Shown here in pieces: positions 1,123 to 22,327 of a stretch of 64,000 nt of DNA. Every line of letters starts with the position of its first letter. The stretch's first letter is position 1. Below the pieces are notes generated by a model, which did not search any database, was not told the DNA's origin, and saw nothing but the letters and a program-made list of their open reading frames with translations. The stretch is from Candidatus Nanohaloarchaea archaeon (GTDB lineage: Archaea; Nanohalarchaeota; Nanosalinia; Nanosalinales; Nanosalinaceae). The position numbers and the translations under genes were made by a program. The stretch lies in assembly GCA_042217575.1 (NCBI GenBank), contig JBDGSK010000014.1, positions 10,930 to 74,929 on the forward strand, given 5' to 3'.

Positions 1123-1184
1123 ATCTACCAGTAAGTAACAACACTTCAAAAGGTTTTTGGTTTTCCATGATGTCTGCGGCACTG

Positions 1185-1191
1185 ATTTAAG
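1185..1191 (+). promoter_or_regulatory. TATA-like box for mre11 (leaderless-type spacing)
   Basis: An ATTTAAG box lies 23-29 nt upstream of the in-frame GTG at 1214. Confidence 0.35.
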
Positions 1192-1213
1192 CTTCAGTAG
1201 CGCCAGTTTTGAC

Positions 1214-4658: not shown

Positions 4659-4823
4659 TCAGAGATAAAAATATTTTAGAGCAATTAACCTTTGAGGTGA
4701 GAAATTAGTGCTCGATAAGATAGATGATTTTGTACAGGAAGTGAAGGATGAGATAGAGGAGAAGAGGAAGGAAAGAAAGAGGGAAGATAGAGGTACCTGG
4801 GCTTGATGCAGGTTAAATAGATT

Positions 4824-6293: not shown

Positions 6294-6318
6294 AGTATTT
6301 TCCTCTACCTCAACGGAT

Positions 6319-8442
6319 TTAACTCTGCAGGAAGAACGCGGCGGATGCTATCATCATCAGGATCACGAGCTGGAACGGCCCTACACCGGGAACGCTTTTC
6401 GGTCGCTGACGCCTGACAGTCCCCTCTACAGCCGTGCTGTTGATGACATCGACGGTCAGGTTGTCTTCTCCATACATCTCCGTGTTAACCGCGTCCGCCC
6501 GGACGACCAGTCTGTTATCCGAAGGCGGTGACAGTTCACCGATCCTGAGGTCGCCTCCGCTTATCTGGACGTAGAACCTCTTCGAGGAGTCCGGCATGAC
6601 TGTAGTGTTGAAGCTGTCACCGTTCTTGTCCCTGAAGCCTGCGAAAGTGTATACCGCGGAGCCTGGTTCAAGACTTACCTCGAAGGTTCTCGGTGAATCC
6701 CGGACGTTGATTATCTGGAACGCTACGTTTTCAGTGTTGCCAAGCGACACGTTCACGCTTTCCTGACTGAACACTACAGGGAACTTCTGGTACCATGCGT
6801 TGTCGAAACATGTCAGCTTCCTGAGTTCCCGGCCATCGTTTCCGGGATCGAGCGTGATCGTTTCTCCTGGCTGGTAGATCGAGCGATTCTCCACGTCTAT
6901 ACCGATGCTGTTCTGAACTACCGGGTACTTGGCGTCGTCGCCGTCGAAGATACATCCCTGCGGGTTCCCAGTTACGCCTATCACATCTCTCTTCGTGTTA
7001 CACAGCCCTGTGTTGCACTGCTGCGTGACCACGTATTCCGCTCTGTCATCTCCGCCGCAGAAACCTACAGTGGCGATCGACTTGTTGTCGCTGCCTGTAG
7101 GAACGGGCGAGAGATCGTTGTTCCACGCTGTGCTGCCCCAGCTGCGTCTCCCGGGCCTGGAGACGTTGGCGTCGAAAGGCTCGTATTTCAGCCATTTGTT
7201 CCAGTCGTCATCGATCCCTCCTATCACAGAGTAAGGATGCTCCTGGATGTACGCCCTGTCGAACCAGCGCCGGGCCGCCGAACCGTAGAGCTGGTTGACG
7301 TTACACGTGTCCTGTGTTCCATCCCGGTCGATGTCTCCCCAGTCCTGGTCGAACCACGAAGCTGTCGGATCCTGGGGTCTCTGCGCGCATACCTCTCTAT
7401 CATCCTTCAATCTTCCAGTATTCTCGTATGGCTCCCCTGCCTGCTTGTACTCTCCCCGGGGAACAATTCTCGGGTTCTCGCCAAGATGGACGCAGACGTC
7501 TCTTCTTGAAGCACAAGCGTATCTCCCGTCTTTCTTTGCGGCGTTGACACTCTCGCCTTTTTCCTCAAGCAGGAACTCTGCCTGGTCATCTCCACACATC
7601 GGCGGGTTCAGGGTCGGAACTTTTTCACCGACTGTTGCAGGATCGTTCTCTCCCTCATCGGTGACGCCGTCGCCATCATTGTCGTTGTTGTCCTTCTCTC
7701 CCTCGAAGTAGATGTCGCCGTGGACGGCTTTCCCGCCCTGTCGGAGCGTTAGATCGGCGTTGTCTCCCACGTTGAAGCCGAGCCCTGAGTCGGGGCCGGT
7801 AATGTCGATGTTGAATACTACTTTTTCCTGCCACGAACCCTTCAGTTTCGGATCAAGTCTCTTGATATCGTCAGGGTCTATCCAGACGCCATCGTTTTCC
7901 GCCACCGTGTCGCCTTTCTCGTCTTCTCCGAACCCTGCCTCTGCGACTGCTGCAAACGAGTTGGCGAACGCTTTCGCGGTCTTTGGCACTCCCCCATCTT
8001 CTACACTGGTTCTTATCGTGCCAGACCAGTCAGGGTGGTAGTATGTCCCCCTGGCACCTTCGGTGCCGTACTGACCGTACTCCTGTATCTGGTAGTTATC
8101 TATCCTTGAGTCTCCGGCAGGGCCTGGAGGAAACGGCACTCCACGGTTCGATATGACCCACTGAGTTGACTCGGTGATCGCCCACTGATCCGCATCGTCT
8201 TTAGAACCGTCAGAGTTGTTCCACATCTGATCTGAAGGATCGTAGTACTCGTCGTCGTCCTGCATCTGGTCAGATACAGATTCAAGCTTGTTCATGTACC
8301 CGTCAAACTTGTAGCTGCTCGATCTGTCGTTCCCTGTCGCGTTGAAGTCCTCATCTCTCCGCACCTGGTCGAACCCGGATGCCAGAGAGGTCAGGATCAG
8401 CACAGAGAGAGCGGCGAGAGCCAGTTTCTTTCTAGTTTCCAT
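6319..8442 (-). CDS. large secreted Cys-rich acidic surface protein with extreme C-terminal hydrophobic anchor
   Basis: ATG 8442 gives the signal-peptide-like METRKKLALAALSVLILTSLASG. The protein is 707 aa and rich in D/G/C. It ends in VPGVGPFQLVILMMIASAAFFLQS. CGDDxxE and DREVC motifs are shared with 8432..10831. Confidence 0.7.
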   Translation of the reverse strand: METRKKLALAALSVLILTSLASGFDQVRRDEDFNATGNDRSSSYKFDGYMNKLESVSDQMQDDDEYYDPSDQMWNNSDGSKDDADQWAITESTQWVISNRGVPFPPGPAGDSRIDNYQIQEYGQYGTEGARGTYYHPDWSGTIRTSVEDGGVPKTAKAFANSFAAVAEAGFGEDEKGDTVAENDGVWIDPDDIKRLDPKLKGSWQEKVVFNIDITGPDSGLGFNVGDNADLTLRQGGKAVHGDIYFEGEKDNNDNDGDGVTDEGENDPATVGEKVPTLNPPMCGDDQAEFLLEEKGESVNAAKKDGRYACASRRDVCVHLGENPRIVPRGEYKQAGEPYENTGRLKDDREVCAQRPQDPTASWFDQDWGDIDRDGTQDTCNVNQLYGSAARRWFDRAYIQEHPYSVIGGIDDDWNKWLKYEPFDANVSRPGRRSWGSTAWNNDLSPVPTGSDNKSIATVGFCGGDDRAEYVVTQQCNTGLCNTKRDVIGVTGNPQGCIFDGDDAKYPVVQNSIGIDVENRSIYQPGETITLDPGNDGRELRKLTCFDNAWYQKFPVVFSQESVNVSLGNTENVAFQIINVRDSPRTFEVSLEPGSAVYTFAGFRDKNGDSFNTTVMPDSSKRFYVQISGGDLRIGELSPPSDNRLVVRADAVNTEMYGEDNLTVDVINSTAVEGTVRRQRPKSVPGVGPFQLVILMMIASAAFFLQS

Positions 8443-10831
8443 CCTGTCCAAGCCTCGCAAGTCTTGAGAAGAAGCTGTAGAAAAGCCCCTCCTCCTCGTT
8501 GATTTTGCCGCCTACCCGGGCGTCTGTGTCGTCACAGTTGACGCCAGGGCCGCAGTCGTCTTCAAGAGCTATGCCCTCCTCCCCTCCTGTAGGGTTGTAC
8601 TCCGAGTGGTAAGGATTGGGGTTTTCGCCCCAGAAGTAGGCGATATCCTTTGCGTTTCCTGAATCGCCGCCGGTTATCAGATCGTATCCTTCATCGTTGA
8701 GGTAGTCGTTAAGCATCTCATTGTCAAGGTCGTACCATTCGCCTCCGTAGTCTTGCCCGTTTACATCGTTGCCAGTGTTGTCCCATGACTGGTATTCGCC
8801 GTCATCATCTGAAAGATCGTTTCTCATGTTGGTTCCTGTTCCATCAGGGTCGACGCAGACCTCGCGATCCGGGGACCGGTCACCTTTCTCGTAGCGATCC
8901 GCGTTCGGCGATTTGATGTTTATCACGGTTCCCTCTGCGTATGCTCTGCCCCTGTACAGGCATGCGTTCCCGTCAAGCCCTTCATTGAGGAAGCCCCTGT
9001 CCTCCTTCCAGTCAACGCATTTCTGGGCGTGCTGAAGCCGTGTCTTGACGTTCTGGTACTCTACTTCATAGCCTTCCATAACGAGAAGATGCTCCTGTGG
9101 TTCATCGCCACAGGCCTCTGAAAGCGGCGACACATCCTCGCTGCCGTCGCTTCCTCTTTCAAAGTCGCAGTCGACGACTTCTGAGTTATCGGCGTCTCCA
9201 TCGTTTTCCTCGATGTAGTTAACCATCTTGCACGCCGAGTAAGATCTGCCCAGCGAGAACGTTTCCACGTCCGCCTCTACTGCGTCGTCCATGTTGTTGC
9301 TGCTCCAGTCTGTATCGCCACCCCATGCCGGGCTTCCACGGCTTCCATCGCCCTCCTCCGTGTAGAAATCAGCGTAAGCGATACAGACATTCTTCTCCCC
9401 GGGACACGAGGCCGCGGCTTCAATCTTGTACGTGTAGTCCCTGTATTCACTGCTGTCGCCGTTGTTCAGCGTCTCCTCACGGAACCAGACACGTTCCCCG
9501 ACGCGCTGTGAACCGTCCGGACTCATCTTTCCGGTGACCTGTCCATTTTCAATTATCACGAATCCGTCTCCGTAACCTCGTGGGCCGTCAGCGTCAACTG
9601 TTCTCGTCTTGTGCGCCTGGCACCATACCTCGTTTCTCGTGTTATCCCCGAACGCCCTGTAGTCCGTCCAGGTTCCAGCAGGATCGTTGTCGGCCATCGA
9701 GTCAGTGCTCCTGCCCTCGGAGTCGCCTCCTCCATCGACAAGGTTCTCGTTGTCGCAGTTGTACTCATCGTCCGGCTCACCGTTCTTGTCCCAGGCCCGT
9801 GTCTCTGCGCTGCAGGTGTAACTAACGCTTGAACAGTAGTAACAGGTCGTCGTACATTTCTTCCCGCAGCTGCAGGTGTATGACCCCTCCTGCTGGTCGC
9901 TGCACGAAGTAGAGGTCGAACCGCCGCCCTCGCAGCTGTCCTGGTCGTAGTCCTCAGTGTTGCCGTCAGCGTTTACAAGCCAGTAGTAGTTGCTCTCATC
10001 GCTGCTGTAATCAGTTTCTCCGCAGCCGCCGATCTCGCAGCCAGCGTTTGAAGTGTATCCCTCGGTGGTGCAGTAAGGTTTGTCGTCCCTGCACTGCAGC
10101 GAGTCCTCCATGTAAGGGCTTTCAACGGCTTGTTCATCGTGAAGCCTTCCGTAGTCTTTTCTACAGTTTATGCTTGTCGAGCTATCATACGCGTCGATGC
10201 TGAAGCTTCCGAGAGTGTCCTCTCCCTCGTTGGTCTTTCCGTCGCCGCAGGTGACGCTTCCGTCAGGGTTAGGCGGGTCGACCACCCGGCCGGTCTTTTC
10301 CACCGTACCCGATGGAAAACCGCTCAGCGTCTTCTTCGCGAACTTGCCGAAGCCGAAACGATCCGTGGCCTCCGAGCCGCGATCCTTGATGTAGTACTCC
10401 GTCACTTCAGGCGTCGAGGTAGAAGTATCGGCGACCGTTATGCTGTTGTCGTCGTTTCCCTGGTGTAGCGTCGCCTGGAAGAAGACTGACTCGGTATTCC
10501 CGACCGCTGGCGTGTTGCCGCCTGCTGTCAGGCTTGTCAGGTCGGCGTCCCAGATGTTTCCTTCAATCCAGTCGTAGCTGTAAGGCTTGACACAGCCTAA
10601 GTCTGTATCATCCAGTCCGTCTTTCGACTGGTCGGTATCGTTGTCACCGCTATCGGTGCACATCGGGGTGGAAACAGTCGAGGGACAGGAAATGTCAGGA
10701 TCCAGGGTACACGGCGCCGAATTTACGGTTCCGTCACAGCTGCCGATACATCCCGTGTCGGTGATTGAGAAAGCTGGAGCCGCTAGGAATGCTAATGTAA
10801 CGACTATGATTGCGGCTCCGTGCGCGCGCAT
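8432..10831 (-). CDS. large secreted Cys-rich, extremely acidic protein
   Basis: ATG 10831 gives MRAHGAAIIVVTLAFLAAPAFS. The protein is 799 aa with many Cys and D/E/G/T/S-rich stretches and no C-terminal TM segment. It overlaps the downstream gene start by 11 nt. Confidence 0.7.
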   Translation of the reverse strand: MRAHGAAIIVVTLAFLAAPAFSITDTGCIGSCDGTVNSAPCTLDPDISCPSTVSTPMCTDSGDNDTDQSKDGLDDTDLGCVKPYSYDWIEGNIWDADLTSLTAGGNTPAVGNTESVFFQATLHQGNDDNSITVADTSTSTPEVTEYYIKDRGSEATDRFGFGKFAKKTLSGFPSGTVEKTGRVVDPPNPDGSVTCGDGKTNEGEDTLGSFSIDAYDSSTSINCRKDYGRLHDEQAVESPYMEDSLQCRDDKPYCTTEGYTSNAGCEIGGCGETDYSSDESNYYWLVNADGNTEDYDQDSCEGGGSTSTSCSDQQEGSYTCSCGKKCTTTCYYCSSVSYTCSAETRAWDKNGEPDDEYNCDNENLVDGGGDSEGRSTDSMADNDPAGTWTDYRAFGDNTRNEVWCQAHKTRTVDADGPRGYGDGFVIIENGQVTGKMSPDGSQRVGERVWFREETLNNGDSSEYRDYTYKIEAAASCPGEKNVCIAYADFYTEEGDGSRGSPAWGGDTDWSSNNMDDAVEADVETFSLGRSYSACKMVNYIEENDGDADNSEVVDCDFERGSDGSEDVSPLSEACGDEPQEHLLVMEGYEVEYQNVKTRLQHAQKCVDWKEDRGFLNEGLDGNACLYRGRAYAEGTVINIKSPNADRYEKGDRSPDREVCVDPDGTGTNMRNDLSDDDGEYQSWDNTGNDVNGQDYGGEWYDLDNEMLNDYLNDEGYDLITGGDSGNAKDIAYFWGENPNPYHSEYNPTGGEEGIALEDDCGPGVNCDDTDARVGGKINEEEGLFYSFFSRLARLGQDGN

Positions 10832-10872
10832 GTAGACGTTTGGAACATGTCTCAATAAAAATCCCGCGGCCT

Positions 10873-13581
10873 TCAGTTCAGGATTTCATCTCGCCTGAAG
10901 AAGTCGGAGCTTACTTTTGACTTGATCTCGGTAATGTTCTTGAGCGCGTAGTAATCAGGCACTATGAGTTTCTTGACGATCTCTGGCCACTTGCCGCTTT
11001 CCACGTTGCTCTCAACGTTGTTTACTATCTCCTGGGCGGAGTTCTGCTCTGAGAACCAGTTGTATTTCTGGAACAGTTTCCCGCCCTCGTATACTGTTCC
11101 CTTGGTGTCAGTAAGGTTCCAGGCACAGGTGAACTCTCCGGGACTGTCGGTCGGCACACCTGTTACATTCACGTTGAAGCTGTCGCCAACCTTTGCCAGT
11201 GTTTGCTGGAGCGTGGGTTCGGCGATGTCATTGTATTTCGGGGCGCTCCCGAACCTGGCAGCGCTGTCTGAAGACGCTATATTGCTCGGCCGATCGCTCG
11301 GCTGTCCTCTCCAGCACGCTCCCTCTATGCTGTCAAGCTGGTTCCCGGTCGCCCATCTGAACTTGATGAAAGACGCCGGTATAAGCTTGAAGCCTACCGT
11401 ATCGGTCGGGTTTTCCTCGACATCCGGCATCACATAGTCGAAGTAGGTCTTGTAATTTTCAGGGCGGCAACGCCACACGTAGTTAGTCTCGCCGGAGCTA
11501 TCATTGTAGTAGCCCCAGCGATTGCTTTCAGGACACTTCCCGGCGTAGCCTCCCTTGAAAAGCTCGACTCCCAGCATAACGTTGTTTTCCGTGTAGACAG
11601 GGTTTACAGACCTGATGCGCGGATTCTCCGGTGCAAGAATGTTCCCGACCGTCCAGGCGTTTGAGAGCTGGTCGGTCTGCTCTGGATCCTTGTAAGGATC
11701 CGCGTAACTCTCGGGTATCCCTTTGTCGACGTAGGACTGGTAGCGGTGAGGGCTATCCGAGTCTATCTCCTCTTCGGCGCGGGCAAGTAGCTCATATGCG
11801 AACGGATAGTAACCGGCTTCTATCGCGAACGTCTTTCCGTAGGGGATGTAGGACTCGTTCAGCTTGATCTGTGCCACAGGCATCCTGTCATCATGCTTTG
11901 AAGGTATTCTACCGGCTATAGCGTCGCAGACCTGGTTGGCCTGGTACTGCATCTTTTTCTCCACCTCGCCAGCTGAAAGGCTTGACTTCTTGATATCAGA
12001 GGTAGATACCAGCGGATGCTGGACAATGTTGCCGCTGTTGTCGCAGACGAACTCGGTCTTGTTCTTCGCCATCGCAGGGATCTCCGCCTGGAAACTGCCG
12101 TAGGTTTTTCCCGTTAGTTGGTCGGTATACTTGCTTCCCGCACCGTAGAATGCAACTTTTCGGTCTTCCAATCCTCTGTTGTTCTTAACCGTCTTTTTTA
12201 CTAGACCCACTCTTGGCTCCTTCTTACTTGACCCGATCTTCTCTGAGTGATCTCCAAGGCCGGAGCAACCACCGTCTTCTGGAAGTCCTCCAGAACCATA
12301 TACAGGTTCTGTGCCCCTGAGATCTGCGGTCCCATCCCCATCATTGTCTACGCCGTCATTGCACACAGTTACTCTTTTCCAGTTACCTGTAGCGCTGTTA
12401 CAGACAAATCTGTCCTTGCTTTTGCCTGACGGAGAATAGACGGGATTCGAACCCTTGAGCCTGAATTCTCCACACATATGGAACTTTGGAGGGTTGTAAA
12501 CACTATTGACACTCTCCACGTTCTCATTATCGCCGTATCGCCATCCTACAACTATCTCGTAAAGATTAGTGTAGGCAACATCTCTCTTCGAGGAAAAGTC
12601 CTTATTTGCAGCCTTGAAATGGCCAAGAGGACACTTTGTGCCGCAATTCTCAGTATTGACCGCATCGTCCTTATAGGTGAACGTCGTCTTGACAACTCCG
12701 CAGGGAGTGTCCTCTGAAGAAACGCAGGTCGCTTTATCACCACTTACGCTGCTCCAGTTGACATACTTGTACAGTCCATCTGCATTCGGTTCGAACACAA
12801 CCCCCATCTTGGGCGTATAATACTTTGTGCTTCCTCCGCTAATCGACAGGTCAGTCTCTGTTACCTCGATCAGGCCCGCGTTTGTATCTACACTCTTTTG
12901 GAGGACAGTAGAATTGTCGCCGGTGTCTGACTCCAAGCGAATTATCTGGAGTTCAGGAGGAGGGTTTCCCAAGATAGCTGGCGGGTTCTTCTCCATCTGT
13001 ACCTTGAGGTTTTCAGCCGTTGCCTTCGGTCTAACTATAAGCCTCTTGGTGTTAGCATCATAGGAAAAAGCGAGAGATGCTCTGTCCCAATCCGTATCCG
13101 AATCTTCCGTAAAACGTGTGAAAAGCGGACCGTAGGAGTACTTTCCTGGCTTCAAGTTGAGGTAGTTGCCGGGTATATTTGGCGCTGTGGGATAGCTGTC
13201 CCCTGCAGGACCATACCTGTTATAGTAATAATCTTTGGAACCATCGCCTGTCCAGACAACGGAATCTGTGCCGCTACTCAGGGTCACGTTAAACTTTCCC
13301 GCAACCTGAATCTTACCTCCTTGACAGGTATACCTATCCTGGTCACAGAAGGCGCCCCAGTACCCGATCTCTTCGCCCGGCCAGCTTGGCTTGTAGTCGG
13401 AAGAAGGTTTACTGCCATAGGGGTGTATGTAAAACGAGAGATATGACAGATGATGACTGCCTGTGAGCACACCTGTACCATATATACTTGTTTCCACACC
13501 CCTGTCCGGCTGTTTGGCTGCGGCAGGAATTATCAGTGCAAGCAGAAGTAGAGTTGCCGCGGCGGTTTTGACAGCGTCCAT
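10873..13581 (-). CDS. large secreted Cys-rich protein with CNDGVDNDGDG calcium/metal-binding-like motif (paralog of 13654..16503)
   Basis: The signal peptide is MDAVKTAAATLLLLALIIPAAA and the protein is 902 aa. Collinear blocks shared with the 949-aa neighbour are PPKFHMCGE, VYSPSGKSKDRFVC, CNDGVDNDGDG (12331..12363), GGYAGKCPESNRWGYY and ACWRGQPSD. Confidence 0.75.
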   Translation of the reverse strand: MDAVKTAAATLLLLALIIPAAAKQPDRGVETSIYGTGVLTGSHHLSYLSFYIHPYGSKPSSDYKPSWPGEEIGYWGAFCDQDRYTCQGGKIQVAGKFNVTLSSGTDSVVWTGDGSKDYYYNRYGPAGDSYPTAPNIPGNYLNLKPGKYSYGPLFTRFTEDSDTDWDRASLAFSYDANTKRLIVRPKATAENLKVQMEKNPPAILGNPPPELQIIRLESDTGDNSTVLQKSVDTNAGLIEVTETDLSISGGSTKYYTPKMGVVFEPNADGLYKYVNWSSVSGDKATCVSSEDTPCGVVKTTFTYKDDAVNTENCGTKCPLGHFKAANKDFSSKRDVAYTNLYEIVVGWRYGDNENVESVNSVYNPPKFHMCGEFRLKGSNPVYSPSGKSKDRFVCNSATGNWKRVTVCNDGVDNDGDGTADLRGTEPVYGSGGLPEDGGCSGLGDHSEKIGSSKKEPRVGLVKKTVKNNRGLEDRKVAFYGAGSKYTDQLTGKTYGSFQAEIPAMAKNKTEFVCDNSGNIVQHPLVSTSDIKKSSLSAGEVEKKMQYQANQVCDAIAGRIPSKHDDRMPVAQIKLNESYIPYGKTFAIEAGYYPFAYELLARAEEEIDSDSPHRYQSYVDKGIPESYADPYKDPEQTDQLSNAWTVGNILAPENPRIRSVNPVYTENNVMLGVELFKGGYAGKCPESNRWGYYNDSSGETNYVWRCRPENYKTYFDYVMPDVEENPTDTVGFKLIPASFIKFRWATGNQLDSIEGACWRGQPSDRPSNIASSDSAARFGSAPKYNDIAEPTLQQTLAKVGDSFNVNVTGVPTDSPGEFTCAWNLTDTKGTVYEGGKLFQKYNWFSEQNSAQEIVNNVESNVESGKWPEIVKKLIVPDYYALKNITEIKSKVSSDFFRRDEILN

Positions 13582-13653
13582 AGCCCTATCTTTATTCCGC
13601 TTCTTTTAATTTCATGTCATGGCTTGCCGTACATGGCAGGTATCGGACCTGTG

Positions 13654-16503
13654 TCACTGCAGCAGGTTGGTTGAGTCCTGGAATATCTTGTTAAATGTCT
13701 TGCTTTCGGCTTTTTCCTCGGAAGGTACCAGGCTTTCTTTCTGGAAGAAGTTGCTTCCTACTGTCTCCCCGAGAGTACTCATGTTTGTGAATGTGTCGCA
13801 TGGGACGTCGAAGACCCGGTAGCAGCTCCTGTAGCTCAGGTCGTTTCTCTGGGCGATGTCTTTGACGGCTTTTGATATCCTGTCCATCGCGTCTTTCTTC
13901 CGCCACCAGTTGATCCAGAGAGACCGGTCCTGGGCGACTTTCCTGCCATCTTCTGTGGTCACGGTAAAGTTGCAGGTGTAGGTGCCGCTGGTGCTGGTGT
14001 CGACCCCGCTTACCGGAAGGGTTACAAACCATCCGACCGTGTTGCCGATCGGTTGGTCGACTTTCCTGCTTCCTGAAAGGGTTGCAGGTTTGTTCGAGGG
14101 GTTGCCCTTCCAGCACGCTGTTTTTATCTTGTCGATATTGGCGTTGTAGTTGTCCTGGAGGCTTTGAAGCGTGCTTCCGGGTATCTTGACACCCACGTTT
14201 TCCGTGCCTTTCTCAATATCGGGCAGGATGTAGATATAGTTAGGCTCTCCCGAGCACCGCCATTCGCCTTTGTAGTAGCCCCAGCTTTTTCCGGGAGGGC
14301 ATTTGCCTGCGAAGCCTCCGGTGAACCTGACAGGGTTTTCAGCCGGGAGTCCTGCGAAAGTCTGGATGCTGACGCCGTTGATGCGGTCGTTGAACACCGC
14401 CAGATAGTTTCCGACCGTCCACGAGTCTTGGAGGCTGTCCTTCTGTTTCGGAGCCTCGTAGGGTTGCGAGACGGTAGCGTTCATCCCTTTGTCCTTCAGA
14501 TCCGAGGCTGTCGGGTTCCCGGTGCCGAACACTTTCTGCTCGAACTCCTGGAGTGACTGGGTTGAAATCGGCTTAAAGCCGTTTGGCGTGGCGTATTCTT
14601 TTCCGAAGGGAAGCAGGGACTGGGGTATCTGTATCTGGGCTACCGCGAGTTCTTTGCCGTGGCCGGTTACCGTTGCCGAGTTCAGGCATTTCCGCTGTGC
14701 GTAGTAGGCCACTTTGTCTCGGATATTGTTCTTTGAAAGAGAGCTCTCCCGGATAGTGCTCGAAACCGATACGTGCGGATGTGAGGCGATCTCTCCTTTA
14801 TCGGTGTTGCACATGTAAGTGTAGGCGAGCTGGTCTTCCTTGCCCTGGTTGATCACCTGGCTGATGTCAAGCGTTGAACCGTCTACCTGGAACCTGTAGT
14901 CTTTCTGGATGTTCTTGTAGCGGCAGCCTGTTATCTGATCCCTGTACTTCCCTGTCTCTGACTGAGTGTAGAGCGCTACTTTCCGGTCATTTTCTCCTAT
15001 GTTCAGGGCCTGTGCCAGGCTTATCCTTGCGACCGTGGCTTCAGGGCAGGTGTTGGTTCCCTCATTCTTTACGGAGGTGCTTCCGCATTTGGGGTCAGAT
15101 GGCATGTTCCCGATTTCCTTCTGGTACCACGAGTTAGGGGCGTCGATCTTCCCGTTTCCGTCATTGTCAACGCCGTCGTTGCACTCGGTTACGGGTATCC
15201 AGCGGCCTTTTTGGGGGCTGCAGCGGAACTGATCCTTCTTGCCTGCGCTCGGCGAATACACGACTTTTCCTTCGAGAAGTGTCAGGCCATCGCCGCATAT
15301 ATGGAACTTCGGTTTGTTATCCTTCAGGTAGAGTCCCGGGCCTCCTGCCATAGGTGTTTCAGTGTACTTGTTGCAGTTGAGACCGGTTTCGTAGCCGCTG
15401 GGGCACATATCCTTCCCGTTTCTCGGGTACTCCCAGCCGTAGATAACATCAGAGGTTGGGGCGAACAGTTTTTCAGACTCCGTCGCAGTGTAACTGCCGG
15501 AGCAGTAGGTTTCCTGGGCGTGGGCCAGCGAGCATTTGGGTCCGCAGGCAACTCCCACGTAAGGCTCTGGGAGACACACGTTCAGCGCGGTTTCGAACGT
15601 TCTCATCGCTGTGTTGCATGGCTCGTCATCGTTCTTGGTGCAGTCAACTCCGTACTTGAAAGGATCCTGGAACACGCTGTTGAAGCTTTCCGTGTCAGAG
15701 TTTAATCGGGCGCCTTTCTCCACCTTCTTGGCTATGTAGTCAACACTGAGGCTTGAGGAAAGCGGGTTCCAGTCTCCCTGCAGGACTGAGAGGCTGAACA
15801 TGTCCAGTAGATTGTCGACAGGGTTCATGTCCTGAACGACGACGTCGCCAGTCGAAACTTCTGAGGGATCGGCGTCCGGCGGCACGTCCGGGCTCATCCT
15901 GAAAGCATAAAGTTGTGGAGGCTTGTCTATCATCGGGAGAGCGTTCTGGATCGGCTCTTTCTCAGTCAAGACCTGGATGTACTTTCCTTCAGGGTGTGGG
16001 TAAAGCGTTATAGTGCCTCCTTTATCCGCCAGTTTGTACTGGCTGCCGTCCCAGTAGTAGAACTCCATCGGCCCTATCTTTCCCGGAGGACAGCTTATCG
16101 ACTTGCTGTTGCTGCCCGGGCCGTTTATTATGGGTAGGCCGCTGGGATAGCTGTTGAGGCTGAGGCTTTTCGGTTCGTAGAGGTAGTCAACGCCGTTGAC
16201 CGGGGAAGGTTTCCGCACCACTTTGACTCTCTTGCCGCAGAGTTCTATCCTCTGCCCTACTGTGTCCCACGGATCGACAAAGCTGTCAGGGTTGTCAGGA
16301 CAGTTGCCGTTACAGGGAATCGAGAAGTCGAAGTAGGTTCTGTACATCCGGTCTACGTGGCCGCCGGGCAACCTGTAGGCTCCCTGAGAGGTGTCGAGGT
16401 ACAGGAAGTCATCCATGTCTATGTTCGGAGCGGACGGGGCCGCGGCCGCGCCGGTGAAAAGGAGTAGCAGAGATGCTATTACTACTTTGCCTCGACTACT
16501 CAT
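13654..16503 (-). CDS. large secreted Cys-rich protein with CNDGVDNDGNG motif (paralog of 10873..13581)
   Basis: The track ORF runs to 16653. ATG 16503 gives the signal peptide MSSRGKVVIASLLLLFTGAAAA and avoids overlap with 16547..17809. Shared blocks are KPKFHICGD, VYSPSAGKKDQFRC, CNDGVDNDGNG (15151..15183), GGFAGKCPPGKSWGYY and ACWKGNPSN. Confidence 0.75.
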   Translation of the reverse strand: MSSRGKVVIASLLLLFTGAAAAPSAPNIDMDDFLYLDTSQGAYRLPGGHVDRMYRTYFDFSIPCNGNCPDNPDSFVDPWDTVGQRIELCGKRVKVVRKPSPVNGVDYLYEPKSLSLNSYPSGLPIINGPGSNSKSISCPPGKIGPMEFYYWDGSQYKLADKGGTITLYPHPEGKYIQVLTEKEPIQNALPMIDKPPQLYAFRMSPDVPPDADPSEVSTGDVVVQDMNPVDNLLDMFSLSVLQGDWNPLSSSLSVDYIAKKVEKGARLNSDTESFNSVFQDPFKYGVDCTKNDDEPCNTAMRTFETALNVCLPEPYVGVACGPKCSLAHAQETYCSGSYTATESEKLFAPTSDVIYGWEYPRNGKDMCPSGYETGLNCNKYTETPMAGGPGLYLKDNKPKFHICGDGLTLLEGKVVYSPSAGKKDQFRCSPQKGRWIPVTECNDGVDNDGNGKIDAPNSWYQKEIGNMPSDPKCGSTSVKNEGTNTCPEATVARISLAQALNIGENDRKVALYTQSETGKYRDQITGCRYKNIQKDYRFQVDGSTLDISQVINQGKEDQLAYTYMCNTDKGEIASHPHVSVSSTIRESSLSKNNIRDKVAYYAQRKCLNSATVTGHGKELAVAQIQIPQSLLPFGKEYATPNGFKPISTQSLQEFEQKVFGTGNPTASDLKDKGMNATVSQPYEAPKQKDSLQDSWTVGNYLAVFNDRINGVSIQTFAGLPAENPVRFTGGFAGKCPPGKSWGYYKGEWRCSGEPNYIYILPDIEKGTENVGVKIPGSTLQSLQDNYNANIDKIKTACWKGNPSNKPATLSGSRKVDQPIGNTVGWFVTLPVSGVDTSTSGTYTCNFTVTTEDGRKVAQDRSLWINWWRKKDAMDRISKAVKDIAQRNDLSYRSCYRVFDVPCDTFTNMSTLGETVGSNFFQKESLVPSEEKAESKTFNKIFQDSTNLLQ

Positions 16504-16546
16504 GTACTTAAGTACAGGTTCGCTTGTTTTTAAACCATAGAGATGC

Positions 16547-17862: not shown

Positions 17863-18417
17863 TTACTTCAGTTCTCCAAGAATCCGGTTTATCTCAGACT
17901 GTGACGGGTTAGAGGCGATTATGGCTTCGGCGGCTTTCTCTCCTGTAAGCTGCTCCAGCTTCTTCTTGGCGCCCCTGGAGATTCCCTCTCCCTGGCTTCT
18001 GCGGCTCATCGAGTGGAATATTATGGCTGCGGCGTGGCTCAGGTTCAGGGATGGATAGCTGCCTGTCTCTATATGGACAATGGCGTCGCACATTTCAAGT
18101 TCGGAGTTGGAAAGCCCTGAGCTTTCCCGGCCAAGCATTACAGAAGTCTGTTTCCGCGGCTTAAACCTTTCCAGCTGCTGTCCTCGTCCCGGCTTGGTTC
18201 CCACCACATAGTCAAGATCCTGGATCGCTTCTTTAGTTTCTTCAAATATCTCCGCCTCTCGCAGCTTCTGCTGGGCGTTCTTGGCTGTTTCTCTGGCCTC
18301 GGCCAGATTGAATCCAGGGTTGACTATTCTGAGATGGAAGTCGAAGTTGTGGGCCAGTCTTGCTATGAAACCTGTGTTTTCCGGTATCTCTGGCTCAACA
18401 AGGACTGCCTTCTTCAT
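17863..18417 (-). CDS. SpoU/TrmH-class RNA 2'-O-methyltransferase (TrmJ-like)
   Basis: SPOUT motifs are present: VEPEIPENTGFIARLAHNF, VMLGRESSGLSNSELEMCD, SLNLSHAAAIIFH. Confidence 0.7.
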   Translation of the reverse strand: MKKAVLVEPEIPENTGFIARLAHNFDFHLRIVNPGFNLAEARETAKNAQQKLREAEIFEETKEAIQDLDYVVGTKPGRGQQLERFKPRKQTSVMLGRESSGLSNSELEMCDAIVHIETGSYPSLNLSHAAAIIFHSMSRRSQGEGISRGAKKKLEQLTGEKAAEAIIASNPSQSEINRILGELK

Positions 18418-18453
18418 GTGGTTTTATATCCGGCTCAAGTTATAGAAGTCTTT

Positions 18454-19143
18454 ATGCTGGACGCGAAAATCCTTGTAGCAGTCCTTATCACACTGGCAGC
18501 CATTTCGACAGGTATGAATGGGGCGTCGGTGAAGGGCGACACTATCGCGCAGAAGGCAAAAAATATTGACACCAGTGGAAACCTTGATCTCAAGGGCATG
18601 CTTAAAAACCCTGTTTCCGGACTGAAGAAGATATTCAAGACACGCCCGGAGCCGACAAACACTGTTGAAGCGACGCTGGAGGTGGAAGACCTGAAGACTG
18701 CGAACATTTACGTGGACGGTGCAAGATTCACGGCAAGCAACTTCACATCCTTCAGCATAGACTCCAAGAAAGTCCATTCTAATGAAGAAGTGATGATATA
18801 CGGTTTCTCAGGCAGCGTCAAGCCAGGCGAGGTCAGCGAGATACAGGGAAGTGCTGACGGCTTTGTTACCAGCGGTGTAAACGTTTCCGGGGTCATGGCG
18901 ATAACTGAGGAGATCGATTCTTCAAGGATGGTGTTTGAAAGCGTTGAACGTTCGTCTCTCGCGTTTTCCTCAGTGACCGGCAAGATAAGTTCTGACAATG
19001 TTTCAACAGAGTTCGGATCGGAGAGACCTCTTGAGATAAACTCGTTCTCAGGCCGCATGGTATTGATCCCTGCGAACGACACCCTGAAGCTGGATGGGAA
19101 GGTTGACCGGCTGGAAGCTGGCAAGTTTAGTTACGGCGGTTAA
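18454..19143 (+). CDS. hypothetical secreted/membrane-anchored protein
   Basis: ATG 18454 gives the N-terminal hydrophobic segment MLDAKILVAVLITLAAISTG. The upstream part of the track ORF is antisense to the methyltransferase gene. Confidence 0.5.
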   Translation: MLDAKILVAVLITLAAISTGMNGASVKGDTIAQKAKNIDTSGNLDLKGMLKNPVSGLKKIFKTRPEPTNTVEATLEVEDLKTANIYVDGARFTASNFTSFSIDSKKVHSNEEVMIYGFSGSVKPGEVSEIQGSADGFVTSGVNVSGVMAITEEIDSSRMVFESVERSSLAFSSVTGKISSDNVSTEFGSERPLEINSFSGRMVLIPANDTLKLDGKVDRLEAGKFSYGG

Positions 19144-19601
19144 TCCTCTTCCTCGTTGACCTTGTTCAGGACTACTTCTTTTGTGCTTCCAGGATCTTCC
19201 GAGTCCTCGTCCTCACTCCCGTGGTCGATCTCGATCTGTCGCAGTTCTTGCAGCAGAGATTCGACGCCGTTGATGAAAGGTCTGAGTATGAAGACCAGTA
19301 GCCTGTACGGTATCTCGACAAGTCTGGCGGCGATCCCGTAGGCTGAGACAAGGAAGCTGTAACCCATGTAGAGAGCTGCTCCTGCGAACGAGTAGAATAT
19401 GAGTGTGTCAAGCGAGAAGCTGTAGTTGAAAAGGTAGACAAGTGATACGTAGAAACCTCCGGAGAGTATTGAGACTATCACCGTTTGCATGACCATCTCC
19501 ATCACCTTGAAGGCGATGACGAACGCTGCCACGAGCAGCCCCACGAGAACGAGCGTGGAGACCGGCTGCGGAAGCTGTGAGATAAACGGTACAGATATCA
19601 T
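19140..19601 (-). CDS. hypothetical multi-pass membrane protein with acidic C-terminal tail
   Basis: This 153-aa ORF has about 4 hydrophobic segments. It has an ATGA overlap with the 909-aa surface protein gene. Confidence 0.55.
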   Translation of the reverse strand: MISVPFISQLPQPVSTLVLVGLLVAAFVIAFKVMEMVMQTVIVSILSGGFYVSLVYLFNYSFSLDTLIFYSFAGAALYMGYSFLVSAYGIAARLVEIPYRLLVFILRPFINGVESLLQELRQIEIDHGSEDEDSEDPGSTKEVVLNKVNEEED

Positions 19602-22327
19602 CTTCCGAGCACATCGTAGAGCGGGTCGCCCTCTTCAGGTATCAGACTTGAGTAAAGTACGAAGCCGAGCAACAGCAGGATGACAACTATCACCGCTATA
19701 AGCAGGAAGGGAGTTCCTCCCGTGTCCTTATTCTGGTTGTCCTGCTGGTTGCCCTGCTGGAGCTGCGCCGCTCTCTGTCTTATCGAGTTTATAGTGGTTC
19801 TTGCCTCGCTGTAAAGGCTCTGCGCTCTCTGGTAGTTGCCTTTCCTGTACGCGGCTTTTACACTGGAGATCTTCTGCTGAACATTGTTAAGCTGTGTCTG
19901 GAGCCGCGAGTCCTGCGGTATCTTGGCATCAAGTGTAGGCATCTCGGATTCAAGCTGGGTTGCTTTCTGGACGTAGTTCGGAACAACATTTCCTGAAACA
20001 GATATCGTTCTTGAAACAGATCCGGCTGTCGTCGATGCGGTTACTGTGATCTGGCCGGATCCGGACTCCACAGATGTAAGCGTCAGCTCGACCTTTGTTC
20101 CTTCTCCCGGTGTCAGCGAAACAGAGTCAGCTTCAACGCTGTAAGTAGCCGAGGAGAAGTCAAGACTTTCAACGGTCGCCGTCCCGGTATTGTTGATAGA
20201 TACCTCGCGGGAGACATCTGAGCCTGACCGGATGTAACCGAAGTTGATGGAGTCAGTTACCTGTATCGAGACATCTCTCGGCTGAACAGTGGAATTGAGT
20301 TCCAGCTCCAGCTTCCCTGTCTCGCCGCCGGCTGAAAGAGTCAGGTTCCCTGTGAAGTATCCGGGGGTGACGACAGAATAGTTCAGCTCTACGGTTTCAG
20401 CGTCCTCAGTAGCGTTCATCAGCACTTTCGAAGGTTCGACATCAACGTACTGGGATATATTGCCTTCGACAGAGGATGTCAGGTTGACCGCCTCATCCGT
20501 TCTGCCTATGAAAAGGGTTTCAACTGTTTCGACGCGATGACCGACTTTGTCTTCATCGATCTCGGGAACAGTTCCCTGGACACATACAGGGCCGATCTTC
20601 TGGACACATACAGGGCCGTCGATCCTGACCTGGACAGTTTCGTTGTATGAGGAATCGACATCCTGTAGCTCTATCTTACTGTCGTAGCTCTGCACGTCCG
20701 TGATGTTAAGTTCCACGGTGAAGTTCGAAACTGCTCCCGCGGAAAGCGTCAGGTTGTTCCCGCTGTTGACAGTAGTGAATCCTTCTATCGCATCTCCCAC
20801 GACCGGTTTAAGTTCGAGCTGCTGCTCGGAGAGCAGGTTCCTGACCTGTAGATCGAACTCCTGGATTCCTCGTTTATCCACGGTTCTCGCCAGTTTGTCC
20901 TCGGCCCGGAAAGTTCTTGTCACGTTCGTAAGCCTGAAAGTGAACTGGCTCTGCTTGCTTTCCCCGTAGATGTTCGTGGCGTTGACCTTGACCGTCCATA
21001 TGCCCTCTTCAGCGTCGTATGGGATGTCAAGGTTCTTCGTGAACCATCCTTCCACCTGGTCGTAGACCATCTCGCTCAGCGAGTAAGTCGCGTACTGGTC
21101 TCCCGTCGGCTTCACGACTTTTACAGTGGCCGACATCCTGCTGGTGTTCAGGGGCGTAGGTGTGAAGTACTTCCTGAACTCTACGTTAAGGTAGTAGTCG
21201 CCGGCCGAGGTCACCGAGGGGCTTCGGTAGAATGTACGGAAGCTCCTGTAGTTGATGTTGTAGTAGCCGATGTCGGTTCTCTTCGGGCTTGTGGCATTGT
21301 ACTTGAACCTGAGTTCTTTCTGGTAGATTGAAGTGTCAAGATCCGGAATTGTGAAGCTTGCATGGTATGTTCCCCCGGATTTCTGCATTCTCTTGGTGGT
21401 AAGATTTTCCCAGCCTCCGGACTCGTTTATTGCCTGGAGCGTCATGTTGACGTTTTCCGCGTAAGACTTGGTTATGTTGAGCCCTACCGAGATGTTTGCT
21501 CCGCGCTCGCAGGCCCTGAAGAAGGAGTTGTTGTTGCATCCGGCGCCTGTCGACATCTCTGTGAACTCTGCCTGGATCTTGGGCAGCGTGTTTATCTCGA
21601 TCGAGGTGGAGCCGTAAGGATCGCTGTAGGAAGCTCCAGGGTATGACGCGTTTACCTGCATGACGTATCTTGCATCAGCATTATCAGGTATCTCGACCTC
21701 CGAGTTGAAGTAGTAGTCCTCGGCGTCATTGTAGTTGTCTATCTTGTAGACCTGTGACGTCCAGCTGCCGTTGGTGAACCAGAGGGTTACGTCAGCGTTC
21801 GGCTCGTGCTCGTTGTTCCAGAGGTCAGTAGCGTTTATCTTCGCCTTGAACTGCTCCCCGAACTTCATGTTGTCGTGAAGCTCATCCTTACTGTTGACGA
21901 TCTGGACCGAGAGGTTGCCGATGTCGAGTCGCCGGGTAGTATTTGTTACGATGTTGCCGGTGTCCTCCTCTCTTATCTCGTAGGTTATGCTGTTACCTGT
22001 AGAAGTGTTTACGCTGACGTTGGCGTAGTAGTAGCCGGAGTAGAGGTGGTTAAGCTCTGTCCTTGTGCCGCCAGTGGTGTTGTAGATAAAGTTGAGAGTC
22101 CTGTTGGCCTTGGTGAACTGTGAGGGGGGAACCAGGTCAACGGCCGTATCGCTATCGAAATCGCCGGTCACCGAGACTACCCTCATCGCAGTATCGGTGT
22201 CGGAGACGTTTTCCGGGTTTTGAGGCTGCGCCAGCGGGTTTATAGACCAGGCTGCGCCTGCAAGGCTGGCGGACGCGAAGAAAATGGCTATAAGAACGAT
22301 AGACTTTGCCGCAGCAGTTTCTCTCAT
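19598..22327 (-). CDS. S-layer-like surface glycoprotein candidate
   Basis: The 909-aa protein starts with the signal peptide MRETAAAKSIVLIAIFFASASLAGAAWS. I counted about 30 N-x-S/T sequons by hand. A Q-rich coiled stalk precedes a single C-terminal TM segment (PFLLIAVIVVILLLLGFVLY) and a short tail. Confidence 0.65.
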   Translation of the reverse strand: MRETAAAKSIVLIAIFFASASLAGAAWSINPLAQPQNPENVSDTDTAMRVVSVTGDFDSDTAVDLVPPSQFTKANRTLNFIYNTTGGTRTELNHLYSGYYYANVSVNTSTGNSITYEIREEDTGNIVTNTTRRLDIGNLSVQIVNSKDELHDNMKFGEQFKAKINATDLWNNEHEPNADVTLWFTNGSWTSQVYKIDNYNDAEDYYFNSEVEIPDNADARYVMQVNASYPGASYSDPYGSTSIEINTLPKIQAEFTEMSTGAGCNNNSFFRACERGANISVGLNITKSYAENVNMTLQAINESGGWENLTTKRMQKSGGTYHASFTIPDLDTSIYQKELRFKYNATSPKRTDIGYYNINYRSFRTFYRSPSVTSAGDYYLNVEFRKYFTPTPLNTSRMSATVKVVKPTGDQYATYSLSEMVYDQVEGWFTKNLDIPYDAEEGIWTVKVNATNIYGESKQSQFTFRLTNVTRTFRAEDKLARTVDKRGIQEFDLQVRNLLSEQQLELKPVVGDAIEGFTTVNSGNNLTLSAGAVSNFTVELNITDVQSYDSKIELQDVDSSYNETVQVRIDGPVCVQKIGPVCVQGTVPEIDEDKVGHRVETVETLFIGRTDEAVNLTSSVEGNISQYVDVEPSKVLMNATEDAETVELNYSVVTPGYFTGNLTLSAGGETGKLELELNSTVQPRDVSIQVTDSINFGYIRSGSDVSREVSINNTGTATVESLDFSSATYSVEADSVSLTPGEGTKVELTLTSVESGSGQITVTASTTAGSVSRTISVSGNVVPNYVQKATQLESEMPTLDAKIPQDSRLQTQLNNVQQKISSVKAAYRKGNYQRAQSLYSEARTTINSIRQRAAQLQQGNQQDNQNKDTGGTPFLLIAVIVVILLLLGFVLYSSLIPEEGDPLYDVLGR

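Follow-up and report, generated by a model that had tools for sequence, protein, structure and literature searches.

Two neighbouring genes of a nanohaloarchaeal chromosome, A and B, encode paralogous members of a protein family that, judging from sequence, is undescribed, fast-evolving and so far restricted to Nanohaloarchaeota, and the genes of this family occupy a fixed position between a DUF1512 gene and two genes for secreted proteins, C and D, an arrangement that is new. We analysed a window of 64,000 nucleotides (the whole stretch of DNA considered here), which lies on a contig of a Candidatus Nanohaloarchaea MAG and so agrees with the small-genome source supposed in an earlier note on this DNA. 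The two genes are placed as follows:

13654..16503, minus strand: gene B, 949 aa, 26 Cys (open reading frame; family HMM match at E 2e-142)
10873..13581, minus strand: gene A, 902 aa, 16 Cys (open reading frame; family HMM match at E 9e-144)

Both open reading frames were found on the minus strand where the earlier note had located a paralogous pair, and gene B is NCBI ABEJ98_00995 (P0002, 'hypothetical protein') in its 949-aa form exactly, with 100% identity and coverage. BLASTP aligns residues 5-901 of A with residues 6-926 of B at E 3e-69 and 27% identity, which rises to ~36% in the core and drops to ~25% over the N-terminal third, a similarity far above chance that identifies A and B as paralogues from end to end. 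All six of the matched blocks listed previously are visible in the A/B alignment, and the collinearity described for the C-terminal two thirds holds for that part but not as a limit, because the proteins can be aligned over their full length. The mention of 'dozens of cysteines' was overstated for A (16; 1.8%) and B (26; 2.7%); elsewhere the cysteine content is 4.0% in C, 1.4% in D, 2.7% in a Pus10 homologue and 0-1.1% in the other tabulated proteins of the window. Cysteine counts are even throughout the cluster (A 16, B 26, C 32, D 10), and A and B, with pI values of 5.3-5.6, are less acidic than C and D (4.0-4.4), which counts against the model favoured below.

The N-termini of both proteins carry the following elements:

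16438..16503, minus strand: predicted signal peptide of B, residues 1-22, MSSRGKVVIASLLLLFTGAAAA, the sole hydrophobic 19-aa window
13516..13581, minus strand: predicted signal peptide of A, residues 1-22, MDAVKTAAATLLLLALIIPAAA, the sole hydrophobic 19-aa window

An n/h/c layout with small residues at -3/-1 can be read in both, the predicted mature ends beginning with KQ in A (after MDAVKTAAATLLLLALIIPAAA) and PS in B (after MSSRGKVVIASLLLLFTGAAAA), and a hydropathy scan gave a single, N-terminal hydrophobic segment in each with AxA-type sites visible. Neither the scan nor the sequence revealed a lipobox, a twin-arginine motif or a C-terminal anchor in A or B, so that both look exported and lack a membrane anchor by hydropathy, as had been suggested. 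Promoter-like elements precede B, A and C:

16527..16534, minus strand: TATA-like TTTAAAAA, -31..-24 from the ATG of B
13604..13612, minus strand: TATA-like AAATTAAAA, -31..-23 from the ATG of A
10854..10862, minus strand: TATA-like ATTTTTATT of gene C

The separate boxes reported ~25-30 nt upstream of B and A are thus present, and since all-A/T 8-mers make up 0.11% of the 8-mers of the window, the chance of one per 10-nt slot is ~1%. Because each has its own promoter-like element, B, A and C do not appear to form one obligate operon. A bacterial promoter/terminator scan of the window stayed at chance level, and such a scan is irrelevant to an archaeon.

Among the open reading frames of the window the family HMM matched only A and B. 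An exhaustive HMMER search returned 104 matches, ~50 of them proteins of 700-1100 aa, and most of these long members have a signal-peptide-like N-terminus (some are truncated), 14-26 Cys and one loop copy. All seven members that carry an organism name are nanohaloarchaeal, and every named member is annotated 'hypothetical'. We define the A-family by ten conserved Cys, W401, Y630, W643, GG677-678, a single acidic loop, a predicted signal peptide and a length of 700-1100 aa, all of which A and B possess. The conserved cores are:

11092..12531, minus strand: conserved core of A, residues 351-830 (column conservation)
13939..15348, minus strand: conserved core of B, residues 386-855 (alignments)

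Column conservation shows the ten Cys, in A residues 370, 394, 407, 439, 513, 552, 683, 705, 756 and 819, to be kept in 98-100% of family members. B retains C486 and C527, as does P0001, and A has lost both; 96% of members have Cys in the C486 column. That the count in A is still even after this loss is consistent with a C486-C527 disulfide, and we infer that disulfides form in both A and B, the predicted pairs in A being 370-394, 407-439, 513-552, 683-705 and 756-819.

Queries with A, B, C, D and the family profiles against Pfam, NCBIfam and the sequences of the PDB assigned no family outside the loop. The AlphaFold model of A has a mean pLDDT of 70.5 and reaches ~80-95 over most of residues 455-895, and Foldseek searches with the models of A (PDB and BFVD) and of a typical member, P0007 (PDB), gave nothing at E<0.001, the top match of P0007 being a plant cell-wall invertase (E 0.027, probability 0.06, TM 0.08); the family thus has a confident AlphaFold core without a PDB match. 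The C-terminal subdomain of A (~750-830, ACW...G.(Y/F)TC) appears Ig-like, its Foldseek matches being of Ig/FN3 type and weak, and B has a weak Pfam Bact_surface_Ig-like match at residues 834-860 (E 0.0057). Matches of B to uL22 (E ~0.01) were judged to be chance. Word-indexed homologue searches retrieved a single homologue with A as query and nothing but B itself with B, their profile version was swamped by loop words, a scan of genome contigs found bacterial loop-repeat proteins only, and full-text literature searches found no paper describing the A-family or the NF033662 repeat discussed below.

These negative results, from Pfam, NCBIfam and PDB sequences as well as from PDB/BFVD folds, bear out the earlier premise that no characterised enzyme family lies behind the pair. 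The family might nevertheless be a new kind of secreted enzyme, or a module that targets one (protease, glycanase or lyase), acting against the host envelope or in polymer scavenging. Such a role would accord with the B orthologue of locus L005, a protein of 1215 aa whose C-terminal extension contains HEMGHQFGLQH and matches Reprolysin_4 at E 3.8e-6; this reprolysin-like HExxHxxGxxH fusion also speaks for the surface model favoured below, since it would fit a protein that works on an external surface. An enzymatic role would also accord with a helix motif, Q-T-L-H-x-A-E-x-x-Y...H, which is present in most of the family (H600 53%, E603 94%, H612 81%) and could hold a metal or ligand. However, neither A and B nor any of the 45 family representatives has the HExxHxxGxxH zinc site, the L005 tail has no tblastn match in the window, and the helix motif is reduced to E603 and H612 in A and to E603 in B. 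The conserved residues are mainly Cys, Gly and aromatics with no catalytic-looking set, no sequence relative was found, and the fold matches are weak and non-significant. We consider an enzymatic role for A and B distinctly unlikely.

The most recognisable element of both proteins is an acidic loop closed by two Cys:

15085..15183, minus strand: acidic Cys-bounded loop of B, C441-C473, CNDGVDNDGNGKID...PSDPKC, partial match to NF033662
12265..12363, minus strand: acidic Cys-bounded loop of A, C407-C439, CNDGVDNDGDGTAD...PEDGGC, partial match to NF033662

The motif coordinates given previously proved exact, 12331..12363 encoding C407-G417 of A and 15151..15183 encoding C441-G451 of B. A DxDxDG pattern (D412/D414/D416/G417/D420) can be read in the loop of A, and the loop columns of the family alignment show 89-100% conservation across the A-family. 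The best model for the loop is NF033662, which matches residues 438-454 of B (E 1.6e-4, 21.3 bits) and 404-420 of A (E 2.9e-4, 20.5 bits) over model positions 4-20 of 32, below its curated cut-off of 41 bits. The L005 B orthologue matches the same model (positions 4-20 or 4-21, within the E range of 1.6e-4 to 2.9e-4 that includes A and B), and a C-like protein of L006 matches it at E 1.3e-7. The core CxDGxDNDGDGxxD followed by D-P/G-x-C is present in A (C407 NDGVDNDGDGTAD...EDGGC439) and in B (C441 NDGVDNDGNGKID...SDPKC473). In bacterial surface proteins and lipoproteins, such as a 1473-aa Deltaproteobacteria protein with PPC domains (L004), NF033662 consists of tandem CxDGxDNDGDGxxDxPxDPGC units; A and B share the string C-x-D-G-x-D-N-D-G-(D/N)-G-x-x-D and the closure of the loop by a downstream D-(P/G)-x-C, but differ in that they contain one matched stretch each instead of an array (bacterial members have 3-19), carry a loop insertion of ~11 residues and are unrelated in their remaining sequence. 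The repeat proteins occur in bacteria. The motif of A and B is best described, at the level of sequence, as a single degenerate copy of the NCBIfam 'acidic double-disulfide repeat', and the putative Ca2+ loop known from bacteria would now extend to archaeal proteins as a lone embedded module.

The earlier note had compared the motif with both MopE-like and thrombospondin-type-3-like repeats. The MopE-type putative metal-binding motif of PF11617 occurs in secreted proteins and is likewise an acidic string, resembling C-x-D-G-x-D-N-D-C-D-G, but A and B have Gly in place of the second Cys of its consensus. The MopE-like assignment was not upheld, since PF11617 matched neither A and B at E<=1 nor the isolated 44-aa loops at E<=10. 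A bacterial neighbour gene in L012 has PF11617. The thrombospondin-type-3-like comparison fared better, in that the acidic residues of the motif are those of the C-rich Ca2+ sites of teneurin-4, although Pfam TSP_3 has no match in A or B. The best PDB match to the loop peptide of A is the teneurin-4 C-rich domain 7PLP (E 0.41), in an alignment of ETACGDSKDNDGDGLVD with VTVCNDGVDNDGDGTAD in which the teneurin Ca2+ ligands D840, D843, N844, D845, D847 and D851 correspond to D409, D412, N413, D414, D416 and D420 of A, so that the acidic ligand pattern of sites I and II is reproduced residue for residue at six positions. This C-rich domain of an extracellular adhesion protein contains two thrombospondin-type-3-like Ca2+ sites, I and II (PMC9058538). 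It differs in having six Cys with a 1-3, 2-5, 4-6 pattern in 38 residues, where A and B have two Cys around a 33-residue loop, and the likeness is confined to the motif, with no homology beyond the loop; at that level it appears to be the closest solved relative. Most likely the A and B loops bind Ca2+ and rigidify the fold; against this, residues 421-434 of the loop region have pLDDT <50 in the model of A.

Downstream of A lie two further genes for secreted proteins:

8432..10831, minus strand: gene C, 799 aa, secreted, 32 Cys, one hydrophobic segment at the N-terminus, with orthologues adjoining family genes in L001, L006, L007 and L010
10592..10660, minus strand: acidic Cys-bounded loop of C, C58-C80
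6319..8442, minus strand: gene D, 707 aa, signal peptide, its ATG overlapping the end of C by 11 nt
6322..6396, minus strand: C-terminal transmembrane anchor of D, residues 683-707 (hydropathy and alignment), the sole anchor among A-D

D has no NCBIfam match to the PGF-CTERM model at E<=1, and its tail, VPGVGPFQLVILMMIASAAFFLQS, lacks a basic end. The overlap of C and D is 11 nt in the window and 14 nt in L001, and the two genes are fused in L007 (1418 aa) and L010 (1624 aa), with a shifted boundary in L008 and L009; the fusions in other genomes suggest that C and D act as a unit. No deep homology of the A-family with C or D was detected by hhalign, nor of C with D by BLASTP. The order DUF1512, one or two family genes, C and D is found in the window, L001, L005 and L010, and in L006 and L007 the part covered, family-C-D, has the same order. 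The family is present at the locus, in one or two copies, in every nanohaloarchaeal contig covering it. A cut gene upstream of P0001 in L001, tried as a B orthologue, was identified by tblastn as DUF1512, which leaves a single family copy in L001. A and B are thus not the free-standing pair of the earlier description but part of a conserved module with C and D.

Conserved gene order does not prove an association of A and B with C and D, and the pair could instead be free soluble secreted proteins (Ca2+-dependent binders or toxins), C and D being unrelated in function and their shared location historical. The absence of an anchor on A and B, their own promoter-like elements and the three unrelated genes that intervene between the family gene and the C-D fusion in L010 fit such proteins, but the neighbourhood is maintained even where identity falls to 72% for HerA and 62% for DUF1512, C carries the rare acidic loop of the A-family, and release into brine would presumably be costly and quickly diluted for a cell with a genome of ~1 Mb. 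We regard this explanation as very unlikely. A mobile-element or viral origin was rejected in view of even composition, housekeeping neighbours and conserved chromosomal gene order, and the window contains neither tRNA genes nor Rfam matches.

On the other side of the pair lies an S-layer-like glycoprotein gene (19598..22327) encoding an Ig-like domain, 31 N-glycosylation sequons and a C-terminal anchor, in an arrangement conserved in L005 and L010. A structural role for A and B in the nanohaloarchaeal envelope (as S-layer-associated proteins or wall scaffold), serving cell integrity with no specific host role, would explain this placement in a housekeeping region, the presence of the family in every contig covering the locus, and the Ca2+ loops and disulfides, which are typical of structural extracellular proteins. 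Sequons are few in A (9) and B (3), however, copy number varies from one to two, and in the closest comparison, with L005, A (37% identity) and B (41%) diverge much more than the S-layer-like protein (61%), SpoU (68%) or DUF1512 (85%). We consider a purely structural role rather unlikely. Against L001 the identities are 60% for C, 59% for D and 40% for A, and against L007 they are 72.5% for HerA, 42% for C, 39% for D and 21% for the family. Rapid divergence among relatives, put forward earlier as a check, is thus observed, with A and B diverging faster than every neighbouring gene, as is expected of exposed recognition proteins, though relaxed constraint, and not an arms race, could also be the cause. 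B and its orthologue are 52% identical in the N-terminal region and 38% in the core, and with the N-terminal region the better conserved of the two, the proteins do not divide simply into a conserved stalk and a variable tip. The clade of A is sister to that of B, whereas L007 acquired its two copies independently, which indicates that duplication in the A-family is recurrent and independent.

We tentatively favour, at somewhat less than even confidence, a model in which A and B serve as the variable subunits, stabilised by Ca2+, of a surface assembly anchored by C and D, with host contact as the most plausible role. A and B would be exported via Sec, stabilised by disulfides and extracellular, and one EF-hand-like or thrombospondin-type-3-like acidic loop in each (DxDxDG closed by a Cys pair) would hold Ca2+. 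Lacking an anchor, they would be kept on the cell surface through non-covalent association with the products of C and D, which would form a conserved membrane-bound base, and the A-family would provide the exposed, fast-evolving and duplicable subunits that confer binding specificity, most plausibly for the envelope of a haloarchaeal host. Both the physical association of A and B with C-D and their binding to a host are putative; A and B, which look exported, are probably rich in disulfides and are encoded beside genes for a membrane-anchored partner, are good but unproven candidates for the surface machinery of host contact, in line with the attachment or host-recognition role proposed earlier. 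A broader version, in which the A-family, C and D constitute a phylum-wide Ca2+-dependent surface apparatus that serves as the primary device for recognising and holding the host, with interchangeable A-family specificity determinants and, in some lineages, effector domains such as a metzincin protease, is a speculative and rather improbable extension; if true, it would describe a previously unrecognised apparatus built from folds without a solved relative.

Host recognition and attachment in DPANN archaea are still an open problem, and for Nanohaloarchaeota the debate has centred on SPEARE-type and LamG/PKD proteins, which are strain-specific or missing in some cultivated species. These SPEARE/giant surface proteins and LamG and PKD proteins are extracellular and have been proposed to attach to haloarchaea (PMC6642349, PMC10266531), and these papers do not mention the A-family. 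They share with A and B the lineage and, as predicted for the pair, an extracellular location, but SPEARE/giant proteins reach 4,000-9,400 aa against ~900 aa, and A and B lack their LamG, serine-protease and ATPase domains and transmembrane segment; a PKD domain occurs in 1 of 47 A-family members. The locus offers a new candidate, a compact set made up of one or two family genes together with C and D, at a constant chromosomal position in all nanohaloarchaeal contigs covering it. The set divides clearly into a conserved part that is anchored and an unanchored part that evolves fast, and its orthologues on contig NAR1_11 (L007, at 138..2279, 3737..6304 and 7688..11944) are one example of the concrete targets that it provides for work with existing co-cultures.

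The paired-paralogue observation of the earlier note was correct and well chosen: the products of the two adjacent genes, A and B, can be aligned along their full length (BLASTP E 3e-69, 27% identity), with ~36% of positions identical across the core (A 351-830) and ~25% over the N-terminal third. All six sequence blocks it had quoted as shared were found in this alignment, and its coordinates for the CNDGVDNDG(D/N)G motif (12331..12363 and 15151..15183) are exact.

10873..13581, minus strand: gene A, 902-aa ORF
13654..16503, minus strand: gene B, 949-aa ORF, adjacent to A
-31..-24 relative to the B start: TATA-like TTTAAAAA
-31..-23 relative to the A start: TATA-like AAATTAAAA

A longer ORF for B, reaching 16653, extends into the DUF1512 gene upstream, at its 3' end; the NCBI annotation starts B at the Met at 16503, and the 949-aa product is 100% identical to ABEJ98_00995 from a Candidatus Nanohaloarchaea archaeon MAG, so the earlier note had guessed the kind of organism correctly. 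The TATA-like boxes ascribed to both genes are real and well placed, all-A/T 8-mers making up only 0.11% of window 8-mers. Each protein has one hydrophobic stretch, N-terminal with a classical n/h/c layout and an Ala-rich cleavage region (a predicted signal peptide by hydropathy), and our sequence and hydropathy scan of A and B found no lipobox, twin-arginine motif or C-terminal anchor. Both are enriched in Cys relative to window proteins, as had been claimed, but "dozens" of cysteines was an overstatement for 16 in A and 26 in B. Elsewhere Cys content is 4.0% in C and 1.4% in D (the products of two secreted-protein genes 3' of A), 2.7% in the Pus10 homologue and 0-1.1% in the remaining tabulated window proteins; each of the cluster's four secreted proteins has an even number of Cys. 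At pI 5.3 and 5.6 (D+E ~12%, K+R ~11%), A and B fall far short of the acidity of C and D (4.05 and 4.44) and of most proteins in this halophile's window.

Word-indexed homologue searches recovered nearly nothing. When 1.84 billion representatives were searched exhaustively with an HMMER profile, 104 matches came back, in two groups. The first comprises ~50 proteins of 700-1100 aa that cover most of the query; in most of them the N-terminus resembles a signal peptide (some sequences being truncated), and most have 14-26 Cys and one CxDGxDNDGDG copy. The second comprises bacterial multi-repeat proteins whose match is confined to profile positions ~400-450. Every A-family member with an organism name is nanohaloarchaeal and annotated "hypothetical"; no window ORF other than A and B belongs to the family by HMM search, and we found no mention of it in those papers on nanohaloarchaeal surface proteins that we read. 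The conserved core spans A 350-830, the first ~350 and last ~70 residues not being conserved family-wide. In a 47-sequence alignment ten Cys (A 370, 394, 407, 439, 513, 552, 683, 705, 756 and 819) are kept in 98-100% of members, as are W401, Y630, W643 and G677-G678. Cys486 and Cys527 of B are lost in A and both present in the related protein P0001, the C486 column being Cys in 96% of members; their paired loss leaves the Cys count of A even, which is consistent with the two forming one disulfide.

The motif opens an acidic loop closed by a downstream Cys (C407...C439 and C441...C473 in A and B), which had been likened to MopE-like and thrombospondin-type-3-like repeats. The MopE comparison did not survive, since PF11617 matched neither A, B nor the isolated loops, whereas a thrombospondin-type-3-like calcium site holds at the motif level: in the nearest solved structure, the teneurin-4 C-rich domain (7PLP), Ca2+ ligands D840, D843, N844, D845, D847 and D851 align with A D409, D412, N413, D414, D416 and D420, and those teneurin residues build two thrombospondin-type-3-like Ca2+ sites (PMC9058538). 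The model that fits best is NCBIfam NF033662 ("acidic double-disulfide repeat"), which bacterial tandem-repeat proteins match strongly and A and B match partially (model positions 4-20 of 32), scoring 20.5 and 21.3 bits where the cut-off is 41. A and B share the ends of its bacterial unit, CxDGxDNDGDGxxDxPxDPGC, but their loops hold ~11 residues more. By its sequence, then, the loop is NF033662-like or thrombospondin-type-3-like, not MopE-like, and membership of none of these families is supported. In the bacterial lipoprotein-like proteins P0022, P0033, P0036 and that of a Deltaproteobacteria MAG (L004, 8393..12814), PPC (pre-peptidase C-terminal) domains alternate with CxDGxDNDGDG units in tandem, 4-19 per protein. 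Pfam lacks a model for repeats of this class, and a full-text search found none of the papers it covered to mention them.

Pfam searches left A without a match and gave B no more than an Ig-like one below threshold, only one of 47 family members has a Pfam domain (PKD), and the family profile found no relative among PDB sequences. No Foldseek match at E<0.001 was obtained for A (against PDB and BFVD) or the typical member P0007 (against PDB), modelled by AlphaFold at mean pLDDT 70.5 (most of 455-895 at ~80-95) and 71.8 respectively. Only weak FN3/Ig-type pieces came up; they agree with the ACW...G.(Y/F)TC pattern of A 756-819, which looks like an Ig-type B-F disulfide. Conserved positions are mainly Cys, Gly and aromatics. 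The sole polar cluster, a helix motif Q-T-L-H-x-A-E-x-x-Y...H at A 597-612 (window ~11746..11793; H600 53%, E603 94%, Y606 85%, H612 81%), is a possible metal or ligand site, degenerate in both proteins here, A keeping only E603 and H612 and B only E603. The earlier note had named homology to a characterised enzyme family as something that would explain the architecture otherwise; we checked for it and found none, on the strength of the Pfam, PDB and Foldseek negatives, the Cys/Gly/aromatic conservation and the degenerate helix motif. That the family is a novel enzyme or enzyme-targeting module is thus doubtful, although the B orthologue of comparison locus L005 (5579..9226, 1215 aa) is extended at its C-terminus by ~250 aa that include HEMGHQFGLQH, a metzincin pattern, and match Pfam Reprolysin_4 at E 3.8e-6. 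This reprolysin-like tail occurs neither in the window nor in 45 A-family representatives. A gene for an extra 239-aa secreted protein, absent from the window, lies directly 3' of that orthologue.

The new element of our analysis is genomic context, which places the A family beside C and D.

8432..10831, minus strand: gene C, 799 aa, predicted signal peptide, 32 Cys
6319..8442, minus strand: gene D, 707 aa, 10 Cys, predicted signal peptide, the cluster's only C-terminal transmembrane helix
10592..10660, minus strand: acidic Cys-bounded loop of C, residues C58-C80, CTDSGDNDTDQSKDGLDDTDLGC

Gene C is preceded by a TATA-like box of its own and D is not; the two genes share 11 nt. Among loci on other contigs, the order is DUF1512, A orthologue, C, D, HerA in L001; S-layer-like gene, SpoU, DUF1512, B orthologue, 239-aa gene, A orthologue in L005; A-family member, C-like gene, D in L006; two A-family members, a 1418-aa C-D fusion, HerA, Rad50, Mre11 in L007 (676-kb contig NAR1_11); and DUF1512, A-family member, three inserted genes, a 1624-aa PKD-C-D fusion in L010. 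The fusions, together with a boundary shifted in L008 and L009 so that the first ~170 residues of D are joined to C, indicate that C and D are one functional unit. Neither has a relative in Pfam, NCBIfam or PDB, and sequence and profile comparisons find the A family, C and D mutually unrelated apart from the loop, of which every C orthologue has its own copy at the mature N-terminus (that of the L006 C-like protein matches NF033662 at E 1.3e-7). D has a DNDGDGVTDE stretch (residues ~251-267), not conserved in L001. Beside these recurring gene orders, the idea that A and B are free soluble proteins unrelated to C-D, with which their unanchored C-termini would agree, appears quite improbable.

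Set against L005, L001, L007 and L010, A-family genes rank every time with the most diverged of the neighbourhood, and in the three closer comparisons they come first. Identities are 85% for DUF1512, 68% SpoU, 61% S-layer-like, ~60% small membrane proteins, 41% B and 37% A against L005; 60% C, 59% D and 40% A against L001; 72.5% HerA, 42% C, 39% D and 21% A family against L007; and 62% DUF1512, 40% C, 31% D, 26% S-layer-like and ~25% A family (over part of its length) against L010. In a neighbour-joining tree the A clade (A, P0001, P0003) is sister to the B clade (B, L005 orthologue) and the two L007 copies are each other's closest relatives, which implies tandem duplication at least twice; L001 has the A type only. 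A purely structural role for A and B in the envelope, which disulfides and Ca2+ loops would suit better than such divergence, is to our minds unlikely.

The window is otherwise ordinary chromosome of even G+C, with CTP synthase, KsgA, Pus10, SRP54, ThrRS and HerA/Rad50/Mre11 genes; the DNA-repair cluster occupies 394..6293.

394..1239, minus strand: 281-aa ORF, no Pfam match
1157..2416, plus strand: Mre11-like, converging on HerA
2379..4658, plus strand: Rad50, converging on HerA
4824..6293, minus strand: HerA, 25 nt beyond D, GAGG-like element before the gene
18334..19143, plus strand: 269-aa ORF, overlapping the start of the SpoU gene, which lies on the other strand
19598..22327, minus strand: S-layer-like protein, 909 aa, predicted signal peptide, Ig-like (HYDIN/VesB-type) domain

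The 281-aa ORF may be NurA, and the D-HerA adjacency recurs in L001 and L007. The true start of the 269-aa ORF is probably an internal Met (MLDAKILVAV...), as its L005 orthologue of 230 aa aligns from residue 41. The S-layer-like protein carries a C-terminal transmembrane helix as well as 31 N-glycosylation sequons, and TATA-like GATTTTTTAA lies upstream of its gene; the gene is conserved in L005 (61%) and L010 (26%), along with SpoU, DUF1512 and two genes for small membrane proteins.

The simplest model using all of the evidence, which we put forward tentatively from sequence, is a surface assembly in which C-D would be the conserved membrane-anchored base and A-family proteins the unanchored subunits, stabilised by Ca2+ and disulfides and rapidly diversifying; in an obligate ectosymbiont, these subunits would most plausibly touch the host envelope. 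The main value added here lies in defining a Nanohaloarchaeota-specific family that diverges exceptionally fast and has a conserved partnership with C and D. The hypothesis that A and B serve in attachment is strengthened, circumstantially, as a hypothesis.
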